Sequence record: PV636259.1
DNA from: a phage
Strand: one strand, 5' to 3'
DNA length: 50,255 bases
The translations under genes and the position numbers were made by a program. Below are positions 1,926 to 49,875 of this stretch, piece after piece (position 1 is the first letter of the stretch; each line of letters begins with the position of its first letter). A model generated the notes under the pieces. That model ran no database searches, was not told where the DNA came from, and saw only the letters and a list, made by a program, of their open reading frames with translations.

Positions 1926-2342
1926 TTATAAGTATTTGGCCTCAAAGGTTGTGCCGTCAGCTATGCTAAAACCGATCTCTTCGCGAAATAATGTCCAACG
2001 GCAACCATCATCATCAAAAATATAACCAGCTACGCCGCCGAGAGCGCGACCGCTTTCCACTTGGTAACGCTTGCCAAGTTTGAATGATTTTTTCATCGGA
2101 TTTCGATGATCAAGTCCGGTGCACTTTAGCGTCTTTGTTTTCAACTCAGTGAACTTAGCGAAGAAGATTTCATCAGATCCGTGAATTTGTAATTCATCAT
2201 GCTTTTCAAGTTTTAAATACTTCCCGCATTTTAATTTTACTTCGCGAGTGCCATCGAAACGCTCTCGACCTTTGTATAGGTTGTTAACTTCAAATCCTGT
2301 GATTTTATCAGCGTAAGTACATTTCAGTTTGATTGATTTCAT
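1926..2342 (-). CDS. Hypothetical protein (138 aa)
   Basis: Track ORF; preceded (minus strand) by the ACCAATCAGGAG translation-initiation element. Confidence 0.55.
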   Translation of the reverse strand: MKSIKLKCTYADKITGFEVNNLYKGRERFDGTREVKLKCGKYLKLEKHDELQIHGSDEIFFAKFTELKTKTLKCTGLDHRNPMKKSFKLGKRYQVESGRALGGVAGYIFDDDGCRWTLFREEIGFSIADGTTFEAKYL

Positions 2343-5490: not shown

Positions 5491-5893
5491 CGATTACACT
5501 TTAACTTGTCACGATTGTAATATTTGTCTAGAATCGCACTTGTGACAAAATTACGCACTGTGACGCCCCACAATAGACATATGGATATATGTATATATAT
5601 AATATATATAGTGTTTTTTTATTTATATATATAGATAATTATATTGTAATAGTTGTGTATAGCCGTCTTACATTGTCTAGCGTACTGTTGGCATATTTCT
5701 ATCTGCATGTTTATATATACAGTACTTTTTTGAGAGTCATATATTTCTATGTGTACTCTAGACAGCTAGACAAATGTTACACAGCTTAAAATTGGCTCGC
5801 AGGCATTGACGGCCCTGCATTGCGCTGTCACAATGGCAATTGTTGACATGTTATGACACCATTTACACATCAATAGACAAATGAGGATGGATT

Positions 5894-6754: not shown

Positions 6755-6949
6755 ATGGAAACGCAAATTGACGTAGTGGTTGTTCAGCGCGACTCAACTC
6801 ATGAAAAGGGTCTGTTCAAGAAAGGAACCGAAATCACGATCGACCTTGAGGATATGGTTGCATATCACTCTGGCCTTACCTGGAACGTGGTGCGCGTAGG
6901 CAGCGACTACAAACTCAAAGGCTTTAACACTTACTTTGCGGAGGTTTAA
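6755..6949 (+). CDS. Hypothetical protein (64 aa)
   Basis: Track ORF 6689..6949 trimmed to the ATG preceded by GAGGAAG; the upstream part overlaps the regulatory cassette. Confidence 0.5.
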   Translation: METQIDVVVVQRDSTHEKGLFKKGTEITIDLEDMVAYHSGLTWNVVRVGSDYKLKGFNTYFAEV

Positions 6950-8955: not shown

Positions 8956-9011
8956 TGGGGATTCATCCTGACTGGTACAATCCCCACATCAACCACTAAG
9001 AGGAAATCATT

Positions 9012-9518
9012 ATGTTGAAATTAGAAGATGTTAAATTCCCGATCAAATTTATCAGCATGGGATGTGGTGAAATTACGTTCACCGATAAAGATAAGGGTAC
9101 ATGGGCCACTAATGAGGTGTCGCAGCTTAAGCTGGAGTGGTTTATTGCCAGACATAACGAAGTGAATAAAGAAAACTCACCAAATAAGGACTACCACTAC
9201 ATTATGAGTGACGGTAATAATGCTTACAGCTTGTATGATAGCTGGAAGATTGAAGGCTCAATCTTCAAAGCTGCAAAGCCAGAAATCAAGCCATCGTTAC
9301 AGTGCTCTCAGATCGAGAACATGCCACTTAGAGCGACTTTAAAGGGTGTCCAGCTTGATAGCGAATCATGGTTCGAGATTACCGCCACACCTAAAACTAT
9401 TGAGGTACATGATGATGTGGTTATTCTCCTGTTGCATTACGGCAGCTTTAAGCACAGAACGGTATCAGGAGAAATCAGCATTAAGCGCGGAACGCTCGTC
9501 CGCTATGAGGTGAAATAA
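9012..9518 (+). CDS. Hypothetical protein (168 aa)
   Basis: Track ORF; RBS AAGAGGAAATC before ATG. Confidence 0.55.
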   Translation: MLKLEDVKFPIKFISMGCGEITFTDKDKGTWATNEVSQLKLEWFIARHNEVNKENSPNKDYHYIMSDGNNAYSLYDSWKIEGSIFKAAKPEIKPSLQCSQIENMPLRATLKGVQLDSESWFEITATPKTIEVHDDVVILLLHYGSFKHRTVSGEISIKRGTLVRYEVK

Positions 9519-9667
9519 TGGCTGCATGGGTATTGATTATCTTGATGAGCACCGGGCCGGATCACGTATACATGGAAAGTCAGCAAGCATGTAACAAGGC
9601 TCGGGAAGTAATTGCAGAAAACAAGCCGTTCGGATATGAAGTAAAAACAATGTGCGTTAAAAGATAG
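9518..9667 (+). CDS. Possible small membrane protein (49 aa)
   Basis: Hand-found ORF MAAWVLIILMSTGPDHVYMES... with ATG overlapping the upstream stop (TAATG); its stop TAG starts the next motif. Below track cutoff. Confidence 0.35.
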   Translation: MAAWVLIILMSTGPDHVYMESQQACNKAREVIAENKPFGYEVKTMCVKR

Positions 9668-9683
9668 CACGAATTGCTAAACC
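9665..9683 (+). promoter_or_regulatory. Operator/promoter motif copy (TAGCACGAATTGCTAAACC); hairpin GGCCA...TGGCC encloses TGTTATAGT
   Basis: Read directly. Confidence 0.55.
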
Positions 9684-9774
9684 TTCCGCAAGGCCATTTG
9701 TTATAGTGGCCTTATTGAAGCACGGCAACCAACCAATCAGGCTGAATGCAGGATAATTTAATGAGGTTTTATCT

Positions 9775-10008
9775 ATGATTATCGTCAACAAAGAAACTGG
9801 AGAGGTAATGGAGAATTGCATCATCATAGAAGAGTCGCCAAAGTCAAAGCACAAGCATGGTACTTACAGAAAGGTCACTTGCAAGGCTCCGGGGTGTGGT
9901 AATACATACGATGCAAAAGTGTCCGATCTGAATCGCGGATGGGGATTAACTTGCAGCAAGTCATGTGCCGCCGTCGTTCGTGAATTAAAGAAGAAAGGGA
10001 ATATATAA
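9775..10008 (+). CDS. Small Cys-rich (zinc-binding-like) protein (77 aa)
   Basis: Track ORF; CKAPGCGN...CSKSC spacing suggests a Zn ribbon. Confidence 0.5.
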   Translation: MIIVNKETGEVMENCIIIEESPKSKHKHGTYRKVTCKAPGCGNTYDAKVSDLNRGWGLTCSKSCAAVVRELKKKGNI

Positions 10009-10214
10009 TGGCTACACGACTCACTCAATGGCAGATTTACGACAAGGCCTCACGCCTTCGTGAATCACTTCGCGGACTGACGTCAAATGATCGCATGGAA
10101 ATCATCGGTCATGCATTGCACGAACTAACGCCGCATGACGTAACCTATCATTCTTGCGGCAATAAATTTTGGAACGTAACATTCGAGGTGAATGAAGATG
10201 AGCAAAACTCATAA
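10008..10214 (+). CDS. Hypothetical protein (68 aa)
   Basis: Track ORF; ATG overlaps the upstream stop (TAATG). Confidence 0.5.
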   Translation: MATRLTQWQIYDKASRLRESLRGLTSNDRMEIIGHALHELTPHDVTYHSCGNKFWNVTFEVNEDEQNS

Positions 10215-10485
10215 ATTAAAAATCGCCCCGGTACATTTCATTGGAGTAATGAACGGAACAAAAACGGCAGAGTTCCGCATCAATGACCGCAACTTCCAGC
10301 CTGGCGATATCCTGGAGCTATGCGAGTTCGATCGTGACGAGTTTACCGGGTGGGAAGTTCACGCCAGGGTGTCCGATGTTACAGACGTGACGCCATACAT
10401 CAATCGCGGGTATGACGATCAGGAATGCGACTTCACGCAATACGTGATGTTATCAATCAAACCTTACAGGAAGGTTAGACCATGA
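10198..10485 (+). CDS. ASCH/PUA-like small protein (DUF3850-like), 95 aa
   Basis: N-terminal KLKIAPVHFIGVMNGTKTAEFRINDRNFQPGDIL resembles ASCH-type PUA-fold domains as I recall them; start set to the ATG after GAGGTGAATGAAG. Similarity not verified by search. Confidence 0.45.
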   Translation: MSKTHKLKIAPVHFIGVMNGTKTAEFRINDRNFQPGDILELCEFDRDEFTGWEVHARVSDVTDVTPYINRGYDDQECDFTQYVMLSIKPYRKVRP

Positions 10486-11120
10486 AATTTGAATGCGTAT
10501 CAAGTGACGGAACGGGCTTTAAGTGGGGAAAAATCTACGAGGGCGTTCTCGTCAATGACGACAGCTTCGTTGTCGTGGATGAGCACGGTAGCAATGTGAA
10601 CATCATCCGTCGTCACGAATACCAAGAAATTTTCCTGCCGTATGGCGGTAGTTCAAAATATATCTTCCATCGAATCGTGGATGGTGTTAAATTTAACGAC
10701 GTAATCGAAGCAATCAACCAACTGCATAATAAAGAGGTAAAATTTATGAAATTTGAATGTATCAGTGATAACACCAAAAAATTTACTGTTGGCAAAATCT
10801 ACGACGTTCCTACTGAGCACGCAAAGCACACTGTAGCGCTTACTGACGACACGGGCCGTCACCGCATTGCTACCGTAACGCATAATGGCGAAGGTCTGCG
10901 ATGGAATAGCGGCGGCACTAAGTTTGCAACGTTCGGCAAGAAGCGTAAGCGCACTTTCTGCGTTAAAGGCAAGGTTGCAGCAAACAAGATCCACAACGTC
11001 AAGCCGTCGGAAGTTGACAGCAAGCCAGCGACGAAGTTTGAAGAGAAAGCAGATTTGTCTGGTCTGGCTATCGCTCTTGTTCTCCTGGTCGCTTCTATTT
11101 CGCTGATGTTCATCATGTAA
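10482..11120 (+). CDS. Membrane-anchored protein with two tandem paralogous domains (MKFEC(V/I)S...GKIY...) and a C-terminal transmembrane helix, 212 aa
   Basis: Internal duplication visible directly (residues 1-50 versus about 86-135); C-terminal LSGLAIALVLLVASISLMFIM hydrophobic segment. Confidence 0.55.
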   Translation: MKFECVSSDGTGFKWGKIYEGVLVNDDSFVVVDEHGSNVNIIRRHEYQEIFLPYGGSSKYIFHRIVDGVKFNDVIEAINQLHNKEVKFMKFECISDNTKKFTVGKIYDVPTEHAKHTVALTDDTGRHRIATVTHNGEGLRWNSGGTKFATFGKKRKRTFCVKGKVAANKIHNVKPSEVDSKPATKFEEKADLSGLAIALVLLVASISLMFIM

Positions 11121-11126
11121 TGTTAA

Positions 11127-11162
11127 CGGGGAATCGGCTCTGAACGGTTCCCCTTTCTTTTG
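11127..11162 (+). terminator. Rho-independent terminator (GGGGAA...TTCCCC + T-run)
   Basis: Hairpin followed by TTTCTTTTGG directly after the 10482..11120 stop. Confidence 0.6.
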
Positions 11163-11268
11163 GAGAAAATTCTATGCCAGACTTTGATAACTGGAAAAAC
11201 GAGCCGCCATCATTTCAGGAGTTGCTATTCTGCCTCCTGGTTCTGACAATATCTCTTAAGGGTGTTTT

Positions 11269-11487
11269 ATGGCTACTATCATGACAGCGGAAGATGCAGC
11301 GCGTGAAGCAGTGGAAGGGATGCGCCCAAATACCTCCAGAATCGCACACTACTACAATTTTGACGTGTCGGCAGTGCAGCTGGTCCATGAAATTTTAAGG
11401 CTCCCACAAGTTGATTCAGTGCGCGTGGTGACGTGCTTAAAAAATTATTTTTGCATCACTATTAAAATGAATAGCACGAATTGCTAA
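11269..11487 (+). CDS. Hypothetical protein (72 aa); last five codons (N-S-T-N-C-stop) are encoded by the motif itself
   Basis: Track ORF; ...AATAGCACGAATTGCTAA read in frame. Confidence 0.5.
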   Translation: MATIMTAEDAAREAVEGMRPNTSRIAHYYNFDVSAVQLVHEILRLPQVDSVRVVTCLKNYFCITIKMNSTNC

Positions 11488-11490
11488 AAC
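11472..11490 (+). promoter_or_regulatory. Operator/promoter motif copy (TAGCACGAATTGCTAAAAC); hairpin GGGGAAT...ATTCCCC encloses GCTATGAT
   Basis: Read directly. Confidence 0.6.
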
Positions 11491-11544
11491 CTATCAAGGG
11501 GAATGCGCTATGATTCCCCTACACCAAAAAACGAGGGAACACTC

Positions 11545-11991
11545 ATGAAACATTTGATTTGCATTGACACACCTAACAATGAATACACCCTATACGAAAT
11601 TGGAATGTTCAAAGGCCACTACATGACAGCAAGCATTTATGATGCGCGTCGAGGCGATGGCGATCTGATTATTACGTCAAAAGACGTTAATCCGTACATT
11701 ATGCAGAATCTTGGCAATAATGAATATATGGCTTACGGCTGCAACGCGGTGTACAAACATGTCAAGATCCGTAAGCGTATTGTTCGAGCGTTTAAGAAAA
11801 TCGCCATGAAGCACTGGAAGATGAGCAAGAAGGAGGCTGGGCGCTGGGCGCGTAACGTTGCTGATTCATACTTCTATCGTAACGGTGAGTCGTGCTGCTT
11901 CCTGATCGATGAAATGATGGAAAATTATAGCGGCACATTCTGCCAAAGTGATTTTGACGCTTGGGCTGACTACGAGGTAGATTGCTGGTAA
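11545..11991 (+). CDS. Hypothetical protein (148 aa)
   Basis: Track ORF 11503..11991 trimmed to the ATG after GAGGGAACAC. Confidence 0.55.
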   Translation: MKHLICIDTPNNEYTLYEIGMFKGHYMTASIYDARRGDGDLIITSKDVNPYIMQNLGNNEYMAYGCNAVYKHVKIRKRIVRAFKKIAMKHWKMSKKEAGRWARNVADSYFYRNGESCCFLIDEMMENYSGTFCQSDFDAWADYEVDCW

Positions 11992-12010
11992 TAGCACTAA
12001 TTGCTAAAAC
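11992..12010 (+). promoter_or_regulatory. Operator/promoter motif copy (TAGCACTAATTGCTAAAAC); hairpin AAGGGCA...TGCCCTT encloses GGTAGAAT
   Basis: Read directly; abuts the TAA stop of 11545..11991. Confidence 0.6.
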
Positions 12011-12073
12011 TTGCTCAAGGGCATTTGGTAGAATGCCCTTCGTTGAGTTAAGCAACCAATCAGAGGAATCACT

Positions 12074-12277
12074 ATGAAAACTATTACCGGAATGAGCAAC
12101 GAAACGAGAACGCAGATCGTTAACATGCTAATCGGCATGGCTGACGATATTCAGAATAGCCAGGTCGTTATTGATTCATGCAATCAGACTCGTGAGAGTA
12201 AATTTGAATCATCCGGCTACAAAATTGTTGAAGAAGAATTAACCATCAAAATCATTCGCGTACAGGAGAAAGCATAA
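12074..12277 (+). CDS. Hypothetical protein (67 aa)
   Basis: Track ORF; preceded by ACCAATCAGAGGAATCACT initiation element. Confidence 0.5.
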   Translation: MKTITGMSNETRTQIVNMLIGMADDIQNSQVVIDSCNQTRESKFESSGYKIVEEELTIKIIRVQEKA

Positions 12278-12810
12278 TGGATAAAATTACAATTTGGGGT
12301 CAAACTATCAACCTGTTTCTCGGTCCGCGCCGCGTCGCAATCTTTGACTTTGACGGAACACTGAGTGACGGATCAAAGCGCCTTCACCTGTTGCCAACAA
12401 AGGATTTGCACTTAACTGAAAGCTGGTCTGAGTTTAACCGAGCGGCAATATTTGATAACCCAATCCAGAGCACGATTGAGGTTATGAACTCTATGTTTGC
12501 TGCCGGGTATCACGTAATAGTTTTAACCGGGCGAAGTGATGAGGTTCGTTACGCATCTGAGTTATGGCTTAAGCATCACGGTGCGAGATATGATTACTTA
12601 GTCATGCGACCGCACACAGACAACAGGAAAGACACGGTGATGAAAGAAGAAGCGGTGCGAGCGATCGGTATTGAAAACATCCTGGCAGCTTGGGATGACT
12701 CACCGCAAATTATTCCATTATTCCGGTCGCTTGGAATAACAACATATGCGGTAGTTGACTATGGCGATAACATTCACGATCATTTAAAATCGCACGGGGT
12801 AGAGAAATGA
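12277..12810 (+). CDS. HAD-superfamily phosphatase (177 aa)
   Basis: HAD motif I FDFDGTL, motif II VLTGR, and a C-terminal WDDSPQ acidic motif; ATG overlaps the upstream stop (TAATG). Either polynucleotide 3'-phosphatase-like or nucleotide phosphatase; cannot distinguish without a search. Confidence 0.6.
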   Translation: MDKITIWGQTINLFLGPRRVAIFDFDGTLSDGSKRLHLLPTKDLHLTESWSEFNRAAIFDNPIQSTIEVMNSMFAAGYHVIVLTGRSDEVRYASELWLKHHGARYDYLVMRPHTDNRKDTVMKEEAVRAIGIENILAAWDDSPQIIPLFRSLGITTYAVVDYGDNIHDHLKSHGVEK

Positions 12811-12918
12811 ACCTATACGAATTTATTGCAGCACATCCGGTATTGACGGTTATCATCCTGCTAATCATAAATCACACTATCATCAATATGGCAAAATTAT
12901 TTTTAGGGAGATACTGAT

Positions 12919-13491
12919 ATGAAAACAGCTATCATTTTAAACGGCGCTCCTGGAGCAGGCAAGGACACTATCGGATGCATCCTGGCTGACACTTACGATC
13001 ATGTAGCTTTGCGCAGCTTCAAAGCACCAATGTTTGAGATTGCTCGGGCAATCCTGGGTGAGGCTAACTACGAGTATTTCATGTTCTTGTATGAGGATCG
13101 TCGTTACAAAGAAGAGCCAGCGTCAATCCTGAACGGTAAAAGCCCGCGCCAGTTTATGATCTGGATTAGCGAGGAAGTAATCAAGCCGCAGTTCGGAAAT
13201 CGCTTCTTCGGTATGCGAGCGGAAAGCAAGGTCAAAGAGTCATATTCTCTGTCAGTATTTACTGATGGTGGATTCAAAGATGAGGTATTGCAGATGATTG
13301 AAGGTGATATCCAGGTCAAGCTATGCCGAATCCACCGCAAGGGCGGCAACTTTGACAACGACAGTCGTGATTATATTTACCTGGAAGATATGATCGGGGT
13401 TAATGGTTATCAGGAGTGTGATTTCTTCTCTGTCGAAGGTCATCCAGAAATTACCGCTCAGCACATAGCCGCTACGTTCATCAACAAATAG
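12919..13491 (+). CDS. P-loop kinase (190 aa): polynucleotide-kinase-like or dNMP-kinase-like
   Basis: N-terminal Walker A LNGAPGAGKDT. GAPGAGK resembles polynucleotide kinase P-loops and SGKDT resembles phage dNMP kinases; adjacent to the HAD phosphatase. Confidence 0.55.
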   Translation: MKTAIILNGAPGAGKDTIGCILADTYDHVALRSFKAPMFEIARAILGEANYEYFMFLYEDRRYKEEPASILNGKSPRQFMIWISEEVIKPQFGNRFFGMRAESKVKESYSLSVFTDGGFKDEVLQMIEGDIQVKLCRIHRKGGNFDNDSRDYIYLEDMIGVNGYQECDFFSVEGHPEITAQHIAATFINK

Positions 13492-14114: not shown

Positions 14115-14344
14115 TGTTTGGTTTAAGTGAAGCGGAATGGAACGTGGTAAAGCGCGCGGCGAAGGAATTGAATAAATTTGTTAGCGGAATGAAGAAGGAA
14201 GATCGCAAAAACGAAAAGATTATGATTGATGTGATCTCAACTCATCACAAAAAGGTTGAGCTACTCATCGACCGCTACAAGTTTGTATGGACCGCCGGAT
14301 ATATTGCAGGGCGCGTAGGTAACAAAGAGGGTGATTACGAATAA
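14114..14344 (+). CDS. Hypothetical protein (76 aa)
   Basis: Track ORF; TAATG overlap with upstream gene. Confidence 0.5.
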   Translation: MFGLSEAEWNVVKRAAKELNKFVSGMKKEDRKNEKIMIDVISTHHKKVELLIDRYKFVWTAGYIAGRVGNKEGDYE

Positions 14345-14547
14345 TGGCTAACTTACCGAAGAAAGGCGATCAGGTTCGATGTGTTACATCACGCAATGGT
14401 GATGCTTTCTCAGCGGGATGCTTGTATGACGTTGAAAAAGTAAGTAAAGCAAAGAGACTTGTATTTGTATACGGAGACGATGGAAATATTCATGAGATTG
14501 ACTACCCGCAGGATATTGCTAAGGGCCAATTTGAAATTAATGATTGA
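14344..14547 (+). CDS. Hypothetical small protein (67 aa)
   Basis: Track ORF; TAATG overlap. Confidence 0.5.
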   Translation: MANLPKKGDQVRCVTSRNGDAFSAGCLYDVEKVSKAKRLVFVYGDDGNIHEIDYPQDIAKGQFEIND

Positions 14548-15276: not shown

Positions 15277-15300
15277 AACCCGCTTCGGCGGGTTTTTTTA
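15277..15300 (+). terminator. Rho-independent terminator (AACCCGCTTCGGCGGGTT + T7) closing the rightward early operon
   Basis: GC hairpin with GCTTCGGC tetraloop-like centre followed by TTTTTTT. Confidence 0.7.
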
Positions 15301-48475: not shown

Positions 48476-48652
48476 ATGAAGCTAGTTAAGTGCATCCGAA
48501 ATGACTCCAAGACACTTCCATTCCGTGTAAATCAGATCTATAGTGTTGGTTATGATTTCTGTGGGGGATTATTTGAGATTTACGACGGGCGAGGTTCAGC
48601 AATCCAAGCGCCTCTGAACGGTCACTACCTAGAATTTATTGCGATAGATTAA
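48476..48652 (+). CDS. Small protein (58 aa)
   Basis: Hand-found ORF MKLVKCIRNDSKTLPFRVNQIYSVGYDFCGGLFEIYDGRGS... after AGAGGCTATATC RBS; below track cutoff. Confidence 0.4.
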   Translation: MKLVKCIRNDSKTLPFRVNQIYSVGYDFCGGLFEIYDGRGSAIQAPLNGHYLEFIAID

Positions 48653-48770
48653 CAATATCATTCATCACCTTACAGGCTGGCATGATTTACATGCTGGCCT
48701 TTTTGCGTTGTATCAAATAAATTTGAAGGTTAAAATCGACTCACTTGTTCAAAAAATATATGGTGAGATT

Positions 48771-48986
48771 ATGAAAGAATTTTTAACAGCTGCGACGTCC
48801 AGCACGGGCGGCGCTTCATTAGTCGGGGCCGCTACCGGGCAACTTTACATTGCTGGCGCTACATTCATTTGCTTTCTGCTTTTTGGCGCTTGGGGAGCAT
48901 ACTGGAAGTATCGTGATAGTAAGGCGATTCAGGAAGCGTTAAACGATGGCGATCTAAATAAGGCGCTTAAGATCAGGGGGAGATAA
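48771..48986 (+). CDS. Holin (71 aa)
   Basis: Small hydrophobic protein ([21 protein letters not shown]) with charged C-terminus, immediately upstream of the endolysin with overlapping stop/start. Confidence 0.6.
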
Positions 48987-49474
48987 TGAGCTTAAAAAAT
49001 AACGTTATAGGCGCATCGATCGGGGCCGCTTTGACGTTGACACCTACACTACTGGAACGAATCGAAGGGATAGAATACGAGGTGTATTACGATATAGCCG
49101 GAGTCCCTACAGTATGCAGCGGAATAACCGGGCCGGACGTCATACCTGGCAAGAAGTACACTAAGCGAGAATGCGATGCATTGCTGATAAAACATATCGG
49201 AGTCGCTCAGAGATACGTTGACAAAAAGGTGAATGTTGATATTCCGGTAACGATGCGCGCGTCACTGTACAGTTTCACTTTCAACGTCGGTACTGGCGCG
49301 TTCGGATCTTCTACAATGCTTAAGCTAATAAATCAGAGTAAGCACAAGGAAGCGTGCAATCAGTTATGGCGATGGGTATACTACTACAACCCAAAAACCA
49401 AAAAGCGCGAAGTGTCTAGAGGACTAAAGAACCGACGCGCTGAAGAATACGCGTATTGCGTTAAGGAATTATGA
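48986..49474 (+). CDS. Endolysin (phage lysozyme, glycoside hydrolase family 24-like), 162 aa
   Basis: N-terminal E...D...T catalytic-type pattern ([26 protein letters not shown]) and overall T4/P22-lysozyme-like layout. Confidence 0.7.
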
Positions 49475-49875
49475 TGAAACTGAAGAAAACGTGCATTGCG
49501 ATTGCAGTGGCTGTTGGCGTTATTTCCCTATCCGGTTGTTCGACGGCATCTGCCCTGAGCGGTTTAATCGGATCTAAACCGGAAGTTACAGCACAAATCG
49601 GAGAGGAGAACACAAAGCAATTAGCAGGAGTAACCGCAAAATCCGAAGATAAGCGAGATGTTAAAGTTGAGAAGTCCAATGTAGGAAAGATTGACTCTTC
49701 CTTGAAGAAGTCAATTGAAGTGTCAACCATTAAGGCTAACACGGTTAACGCTGAAAGCATCACAGTAACAAAACCGGAAAACTGGTATGATGCTATCGTT
49801 GGCTGGATTCTCGTTTTTATCGGTCTATTGCTGGTTTATTTTTCACTTCGTAAGGACGAAAAAAAGGAGGCTTAG
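49471..49875 (+). CDS. Unimolecular spanin (134 aa)
   Basis: N-terminal lipoprotein signal (LSGC lipobox) plus C-terminal transmembrane helix ([20 protein letters not shown]), directly after the endolysin. Confidence 0.65.

Follow-up and report, generated by a model that had tools for sequence, protein, structure and literature searches.

A gene of a T1-like coliphage (Tunavirus, Drexlerviridae), labeled "hypothetical protein" in all annotated records that carry it, was found to encode two tandem copies of a small all-β domain, followed by a basic spacer and a hydrophobic C-terminal helix. The gene lies at positions 10482..11120 on the plus strand of the 50,255-nucleotide stretch of phage DNA that was analyzed (sequence record PV636259.1; hereafter the window), starts with ATG, and specifies 212 amino acids (aa) plus a stop codon. 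We consider it highly probable that the product is tail-anchored in the inner membrane, where it would hold two cytoplasmic barrels ~40 residues off the membrane on a basic, flexible spacer. Its functional core would consist of the second barrel (unit 2), the spacer, and the anchor, and this core is probably also made alone from an internal start at Met89. For the region 9000-13000 of the window, 116 phage records matched with 80-99% identity, almost all of them T1-like phages of Escherichia, Shigella, and Citrobacter, and 58 phage records match the 212-aa protein over at least 80% of the query. The protein has a full-length match to phrog_10580 (2.7e-134), which PHROG labels as function unknown, and the open reading frame (ORF) as a whole has a ratio of nonsynonymous to synonymous substitution rates (dN/dS) of 0.16 among 12 orthologues.

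Two paralogous domains and a predicted tail anchor

A BLASTP comparison of residues 1-88 with residues 89-212 aligned the first 20 residues only (11/20 identical, or 55%; E = 7e-6). To compare the two units as profiles with hhalign, separate family alignments were built from the collected homologues, and these matched with a probability of 97.1% and E = 6.7e-11 over 48 columns. The score of 53.8 is 20 standard deviations above that of column-shuffled targets (9.7 ± 2.2), none of which reached it in 100 trials. Both units are also all-β in an AlphaFold2 (AF2) model made from the family alignment, with six strands each at nearly identical spacing (residues 2-8, 18-25, 28-32, 38-43, 50-53, and 60-65 in unit 1; residues 88-95, 106-110, 117-121, 127-133, 138-141, and 146-150 in unit 2). 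From the profile comparison, the shuffle control, and the matching strand spacing, we conclude that unit 1 (aa 1-66; 10482..10679, +) and unit 2 (aa 89-152; 10746..10937, +) are homologous small all-β domains of ~65 residues each. They are joined by a linker (aa 67-88; 10680..10745, +) that contains a low-confidence predicted helix at residues 71-82 and coincides with an island of nucleotide conservation described below.

The full-length AF2 model had a predicted local distance difference test score (pLDDT) of 60, which is too poor for a fold search, and its Foldseek comparison with the PDB yielded no significant match (best E = 0.014), but only hits of an SH3/KOW/Tudor flavor. A domain-only model was therefore needed. 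When unit 2 was modeled alone from an alignment that included distant homologues, the pLDDT rose to 90.6 with a predicted template modeling score of 0.77, and the model is a six-stranded small barrel with a long, prominent β1-β2 loop. This is the topology of Gp54 of phage Bas11, and the model is also structurally similar to SH3 domains, so that unit 2 is predicted with high confidence to be a six-stranded Gp54-like/SH3-like barrel. Among predicted viral structures, Foldseek matched the unit 2 model to its orthologues, to single-unit versions from SRT8 and IME-JL8, and then to many small uncharacterized phage proteins, including a DUF7244 protein at weak E-values. The unit barrels carry no catalytic signature and, as modeled, would belong to a fold class that is used for binding.

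Beyond unit 2, the spacer (aa 153-190; 10938..11051, +) contains 12 K/R versus 4 D/E in 38 residues and is predicted to be disordered, with a pLDDT of ~32-37 and residues 151-191 unstructured in the AF2 model. It leads into the putative transmembrane tail anchor (aa 191-212; 11052..11117, +). Residues 192-212 form the sole strongly hydrophobic stretch of the protein (Kyte-Doolittle mean of 2.5-2.7 over 19 residues, with a maximum of 2.68), and the AF2 helix at residues 192-211 terminates the chain. Across the whole protein, we found no signal peptide and no other membrane segment, as no other 19-residue window exceeded a Kyte-Doolittle mean of 1.2, and the N-terminus is itself a predicted β strand of the barrel. 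Because the positively charged flank is N-terminal of the helix and nothing lies beyond it, the protein is predicted to be a tail-anchored inner-membrane protein with its barrels in the cytoplasm. It would resemble known proteins of the inner membrane that have a C-terminal tail anchor in having a predicted cytoplasmic N-terminal domain, a single C-terminal helix, and no signal peptide, whereas the soluble domains of those proteins are unrelated to the barrels.

All complete homologues (T1, IME347, P0099, P0101, P0102, P0104, P0027, and P0037) end in a hydrophobic segment, in differing sequences. IME347, P0099, P0101, P0102, and P0104 each have a terminal hydrophobic segment of their own, and near-identical N-terminal parts are followed by three or more unrelated modules of spacer plus helix (LAIALVLLVASISLMFIM, LAMATVLLISLIVLFFVV, and the long tail of P0037). 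What is conserved is the presence of an anchor, not its sequence. We also observed that the spacer plus anchor (10938..11117) is swapped as a cassette among homologues (P0027, P0033, P0037, and L016), and that it joins the barrel part immediately behind the GKK at the end of unit 2.

A first-pass annotation of this DNA had proposed a 212-aa protein with two paralogous small β-type units, a basic stretch, and a C-terminal transmembrane helix that tail-anchors one copy of the domain, and it had suggested profile alignment and structure prediction as checks. Its ORF is present exactly as described, the profile alignment revealed the significant similarity between the units, and the structure prediction gave a six-stranded β unit in both, now specified as a probable Gp54-like/SH3-like barrel. 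The basic stretch and the helix were likewise recovered at the residues given above, and a predicted anchor accompanies every homologue despite the turnover of its sequence. The estimate of ~50 residues per unit was too short, as each unit comprises ~65 residues and six strands.

Conservation of the second unit and its single-unit homologues

The family is narrow. A word-indexed search of 5.8 billion proteins returned 44 clusters, and an exhaustive HMMER scan of 1.84 billion representatives returned 8 representative clusters at E ≤1e-3. A close single-unit relative is the 124-aa product of T1 gene 68 (ST68/T1p68, YP_003876.1), which corresponds to residues 89-212 at 86% identity. It shares with the window gene the barrel, the basic spacer, the C-terminal anchor, the downstream terminator, and the genome position, but T1 lacks both unit 1 and the ASCH-domain neighbor that is found in the window. 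Our literature searches found no published function for the T1 gene 68 hypothetical protein. IME347 gp15, P0099, P0101, P0102, and P0104 (104-145 aa, 34-56% identity) also consist of one barrel, a spacer, and an anchor, and neither T1, IME347, nor any distant homologue has unit 1. Searches by tblastn with P0101 or P0104 always retrieved unit 2 plus the tail of two-unit genes, and only in ~56-65 records of Tunavirinae type. The position of the gene is conserved as well. P0101 and P0102, which come from divergent Tunavirinae-like contigs, are syntenic: they precede a polynucleotide kinase (PNK)-like gene, are located a few kb upstream of the terminase genes, and in the metagenomic contig L020 follow a DUF3850/ASCH gene.

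The four segments of the protein differ widely in constraint. By the Nei-Gojobori method, dN/dS among the 12 orthologues rises from 0.036 in unit 2 to 0.15 in unit 1, 0.25 in the helix, and 0.34 in the spacer. The weak constraint on the spacer and helix is that of a simple tether. Identity to the single-unit orthologues is 40-55% for unit 2, whereas unit 1 is only 23-31% identical to every unit-2-type domain, its own partner included. Taken together, the single-unit homologues, the dN/dS contrast, and the identity pattern argue that unit 2 plus the anchor is the ancestral, tightly constrained element and that unit 1 is an older, faster-evolving accessory paralogue that was lost by T1. We rejected a recent duplication in situ, since unit 1 is equidistant from its partner and from the single-unit orthologues, while unit 2 groups with the latter. 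Across homologues of 34-56% identity, the invariant polar positions of unit 2 (unit numbering) are K2, C5, T10, K12, T14, Y19, D34, D35, G37, R40, and R52. Such extreme constraint on unit 2, including these positions, points to a specific and conserved ligand.

A likely internal translation start

At 10732..10748 (+), an internal Shine-Dalgarno (SD) sequence, AAGAGG (10732-10737), is followed by an 8-nt spacer and the ATG codon of Met89 (10746-10748). The core of this element, AAAGAGGT, does not differ between the window and any of the 11 orthologues, two of which have one substitution each in the 8-nt spacer. In ISF001, the Met89 codon is TTG, which is still a start codon. The rate of synonymous substitution (dS) in linker codons 67-88 is 0.058 versus ~0.5 on both flanks, and nucleotide diversity reaches its minimum of 0.017-0.03 at 10702-10761. 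Elsewhere in the gene, diversity falls to a similar level only around the start codon of the full frame (0.021 at 10462-10491). In T1, gene ST68 starts at the Met89-equivalent codon behind GGAGG and retains the last ~16 linker codons as a noncoding leader. Because T1 uses this start, internal initiation at Met89 is likely to yield a 124-aa isoform beside the 212-aa protein. Two other explanations of the element were tried and rejected. The RNA around Met89 is less structured than shuffled sequences (z = +1.26), which argues against RNA structure as the cause of the conservation island, and no internal sigma-70 promoter that could serve a short isoform was found in 10482-10746.

The same observations could be read to mean that the 212-aa frame is not a functional product but two adjacent small genes, one for unit 1 and one for unit 2 plus the tail, that simply lack an intervening stop, in which case only the 124-aa protein would matter. 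The internal SD and ATG are after all conserved and used in T1, and unit 1 is dispensable in several lineages. However, the 12 orthologues compared all keep the frame open and show purifying selection on unit 1 (dN/dS of 0.15), the reading frame continues through the linker, and the upstream SD ~7 nt before the ATG at 10482 is conserved in most of these orthologues, with single changes in three. In addition, the 58 records noted above match over most of the two-unit protein. We therefore consider it very unlikely that the long frame is without a product of its own, and favor the production of both the 212-aa protein and the 124-aa isoform.

Related domains elsewhere in the phage and in the databases

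The window contains a standalone DUF7244 protein of the SH3 clan at 48476..48652 (+; 58 aa; Pfam DUF7244 at 1.4e-28), whose ORF is directly upstream of the genes for a pinholin, a signal-arrest-release (SAR) endolysin, and a u-spanin (lysis genes 48708-49875). Eremina et al. (2026) described a "standalone SH3" in the lysis cassette of Drexlerviridae, the family of which is placed in the SH3 clan by InterPro (PMC13164509). DUF7244 membership and the position directly upstream of the lysis genes identify the product of ORF 48476, on sequence grounds, as this protein. In hhalign comparisons, unit 2 matched the ORF 48476 family with a probability of 78% (E = 1.7e-5, shuffle z of 10), so that homology between ORF 48476 and unit 2 is moderately supported. 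DUF7244 and the tandem protein share the N-terminal motif K-C-I ... F..G..Y.V ... D.xG. The match of the 212-aa protein to Pfam DUF7244 (PF23896) was below the gathering threshold (16.4 versus 27 bits; E = 0.0099, residues 11-39), the separate units did not match DUF7244, and unit 1 alone had no significant hhalign similarity to the ORF 48476 family or to that of ORF 14344 (see below).

This kinship raises the question of whether the tandem protein might itself be a cell-wall-binding or lysis-accessory SH3 protein with its barrels in the periplasm, parallel to the "standalone SH3." The profile similarity to DUF7244 and the predicted SH3-like fold would fit such a role, and a lysis-accessory function has been proposed for the DUF7244 family (PMC13164509). 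However, DUF7244 proteins are soluble, 58 aa long, and encoded beside the pinholin, whereas the tandem protein is apparently membrane-anchored and encoded in what appears to be an early unit, ~37 kb away from the lysis cassette. It has no signal peptide, N-terminal hydrophobic segment, or other export signal, its positive flank is on the barrel side of the helix, and it misses the DUF7244 threshold. A periplasmic, cell-wall role is thus extremely improbable, and the predicted topology argues for barrels in the cytoplasm.

A second standalone protein at 14344..14547 (+; 67 aa; phrog_4927) is a possible relative. Its family aligned to unit 2 with an hhalign probability of 16% (E = 1.6e-3, shuffle z of 4.0), and in profile searches of the 397 ORFs of the window, the tandem protein, ORF 14344, and ORF 48476 were mutually best or near-best non-self matches, with ORF 14344 and the tandem protein as each other's top one. 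ORFs 14344 and 48476 both carry a C...F..G..Y...DDxG pattern, and a regular expression for this pattern, which was written after the fact and is not an independent test, matched only the two units, these two ORFs, and an ORF at 1926..2342 on the minus strand (0.025 matches expected in shuffles). A deepened ORF 14344 profile found only close Tunavirus copies among viral contigs, and the link to ORF 14344 therefore stays weak. The ORF at 1926..2342(-) encodes 138 aa, came up in the profile search of the window ORFs, and is conserved in Tunavirus, including T1. A K-C...F/L..G/N..Y motif occurs twice in it, and FDDDG comes after the second copy. Its alignments to both units and to DUF6501 repeats are weak (18-31%, E ~1e-3, shuffle z of 6), and it may represent another tandem protein of this domain family, in this case a soluble one.

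Outside the window, the exhaustive scan of 1.84 billion proteins with the family profile detected P0103, a 270-aa protein of four repeats (E = 1.3e-4). P0103 is a DUF6501 protein (PF20111 at 1.3e-10) that nearly qualifies as DUF7244 (26.1 bits), and its DUF6501 repeats matched unit 2 with a probability of 95% (E = 2.7e-8) and unit 1 with 84%. P0103 differs from the tandem protein in having four repeats and no clear terminal anchor, and the tandem protein had no direct match to Pfam DUF6501. By way of the P0103 bridge, these profile comparisons link the two units to a DUF6501/DUF7244-related set of small phage domains.

The window also encodes a homologue of Gp54 of Bas11 at 6755..6949 (+; phmmer to 9axb_A at 1.2e-13; Pfam PF25180 at 6.9e-36). 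The ORF list gives a longer, TTG-started frame from 6689 for this gene, and the ATG at 6755 fits the family. Gp54 directly triggers the CapRelSJ46 defense protein, and its own function is unknown (PMC11578894). Gp54 (PDB 9AXB) is a soluble single domain of ~64 residues, whereas the protein described here is tandem and apparently membrane-anchored. With regard to relatives, the first-pass annotation had pointed by eye to the standalone proteins at 14344 and 48476 as members of an expanded family. Both ORFs exist and carry the pattern, and the profile comparison bears out the one at 48476 moderately and the one at 14344 weakly. The family does appear to extend to a wider set through DUF6501 repeats and DUF7244, but the true Gp54 homologue at 6755..6949 and the possible member at 1926..2342(-) had been overlooked.

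Genomic neighborhood and transcription

The gene directly upstream (10192..10485, +) encodes an ASCH/DUF3850 protein annotated as "RNA-binding protein" (Pfam DUF3850 at 4.6e-16), and its stop codon overlaps the start of the tandem gene (ATGA). An ASCH/DUF3850 gene also directly precedes the homologues in IME347 and contig L020 and is absent from T1. Downstream are genes for a PNK-phosphatase and a P-loop kinase. A rival reading is that the protein serves the phage's own processes as a membrane organizer, by analogy with p16.7 of phi29. Its barrels and basic spacer would then attach phage nucleic acid, or a factor for phage replication, RNA repair, or packaging, to the inner membrane. The nucleic acid enzymes on both sides of the gene, the recurrence of the ASCH adjacency in two other genomes, and the strongly basic spacer would all suit this role, and SH3-like nucleic acid-associated barrels of KOW, Pif1, and TraI are among the weak matches that Foldseek gave for the full-length model. 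However, these KOW, Pif1, and TraI matches are not significant (E ≥0.014), T1 does without the ASCH neighbor, and unit 1 is net acidic while unit 2 is nearly neutral. Moreover, the basic spacer is the least conserved part of the protein and is swapped between lineages, as expected of a positive-inside flank and not of a specific binding surface. Overall, we regard the tethering of nucleic acid or of a phage factor as unlikely and prefer the capture of a conserved partner by the barrels themselves.

The transcription signals of the region were examined by promoter and terminator scans. The best plus-strand sigma-70-like sites cluster at 5506-5834, in an AT-rich gap between divergent gene blocks. 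Immediately 3' of the tandem gene is an intrinsic terminator (11128..11163, +) composed of a nine-pair stem with 6 GC pairs followed by TTTCTTTT, and the T1 record carries a rho-independent terminator annotation for the equivalent element. In the scan it was located at 11128-11153, and it is the first strong plus-strand terminator downstream of the 5506-5834 promoter cluster. From this cluster and the terminator that directly follows the tandem gene, the gene appears to close an early rightward transcription unit. The next terminator (15277-15294) is a strong hairpin predicted on both strands and is located before the small terminase gene. Together, the promoter cluster and the two terminators appear to separate the stretch ahead of the terminase genes into two units that both run rightward.

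An inner-membrane protein produced early could instead serve in superinfection exclusion or membrane perturbation, by blocking the DNA entry of later phages or altering membrane physiology. The conserved anchor and the apparently early position are compatible with this, as is the confinement of the family to one phage subfamily, which is often the case for exclusion genes. On the other hand, the helix ends the chain and leaves almost nothing in the periplasm, the strong constraint is on the predicted cytoplasmic barrel and not on the membrane segment, and T1-like phages already have a Cor cassette for exclusion (PMC13164509). Such a role is quite unlikely in our estimation, and the constraint on the barrel is in better agreement with a cytoplasmic binding function.

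Several smaller features of the locus were also recorded. Just past the terminator, 11174..11284 (+) is a 36-aa ORF whose T1 counterpart is ST67. Both it and a second 36-aa ORF at 12807..12917 (+) consist largely of one hydrophobic segment and may encode small membrane peptides. The 77-aa ORF at 9775..10008 (+) has no Pfam match, and its CxxxxC ... CxxxC arrangement (CKAPGCGNTY...CSKSC) suggests a small zinc-ribbon-like protein. Two orthologues of the tandem gene are not annotated as intact. The one in Shigella phage vB_SsoS_008 (L004 2001..2612) is broken by frameshifts and annotated as several small ORFs, and the one in phage ADB-2 (L001 2723..3124) is annotated as truncated. Both cases are either sequencing errors or natural gene loss. 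The ADB-2 label "putative morphogenetic protein" was rejected for this gene, as it belongs to the PNK-like neighbor.

Discussion

Our best explanation of these results is that the barrels serve as binding modules. In the early phase of infection, they would bind a conserved partner protein in the cytoplasm, probably of the host rather than of the phage, and retain it at the inner membrane, and this would amount to host take-over or counter-defense by relocalization or sequestration. For this membrane-tethered adaptor mechanism as a whole, with no choice between host take-over and counter-defense, we see slightly less than an even chance. The circumstantial evidence for a take-over or anti-defense role of the protein, which the first-pass annotation had also suggested, is its place at the end of a putative early unit and a fold that resembles Gp54 of Bas11.

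A number of observations weigh against this explanation. Searches of Pfam, NCBIfam, and PDB sequences with the whole protein, the separate units, and the family profile found nothing above threshold, the family profile had no Gp54 match among PDB sequences, and the protein had no PF25180 match in Pfam. An hhalign comparison of the Gp54 family with units 1 and 2, DUF7244, and ORF 14344 stayed at background, with a probability of ~1% for the units. We consequently rejected a sequence link between the units and Gp54, and their predicted relation is at the level of fold only. That fold was assigned from a predicted model of unit 2 alone, and the promoter and terminator scans are consensus matches only. 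The low dS around Met89 might mark the site where mosaic modules were joined by recombination and not a translation signal. Finally, basic spacers and SH3-like, KOW-like, and Tudor-like barrels can also bind nucleic acid, and this would speak for another role.

The kind of domain described here is already known, both from DUF6501/DUF7244 of the SH3 clan and from the Gp54 fold, and the gene family is present in databases as hypothetical. Our literature searches found no description of the tail-anchored tandem architecture, of T1 gene 68 as its core, of the link to the Gp54 fold, or of the internal start. Approximately half of the genes of T1, mostly small ORFs, have no known function (PMC13164509). 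One such gene is now assigned a defined architecture and a predicted fold, together with a conserved core and an isoform that is probably made in addition. The membrane-tethered version of the barrel would provide an easy experimental entry, although the practical value of the finding is modest until a partner or phenotype is found.

Gp54 is the sole solved member of its barrel topology, which its authors termed very rare (PMC11578894), and it belongs to the small number of phage proteins for which direct recognition by an immune sensor of bacteria is known. As a long shot, T1-like phages might carry a diversified family of Gp54-like barrels (Gp54, DUF7244, both units described here, and perhaps the products of ORFs 14344 and 1926) that is directed against host immunity or host control, in which the barrels would act as interaction modules and the tail-anchored member as a decoy that neutralizes a cytoplasmic host factor, such as an immune sensor like the one that recognizes Gp54, by pulling it to the inner membrane, with the two isoforms, of one or two barrels, tuning avidity or target range. 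If true, sequestration by a tail-anchored decoy would be a new principle of counter-defense. More generally, should several small proteins of one phage prove to share this fold, it probably serves Drexlerviridae-type phages as a general interaction scaffold and is not a single special case.

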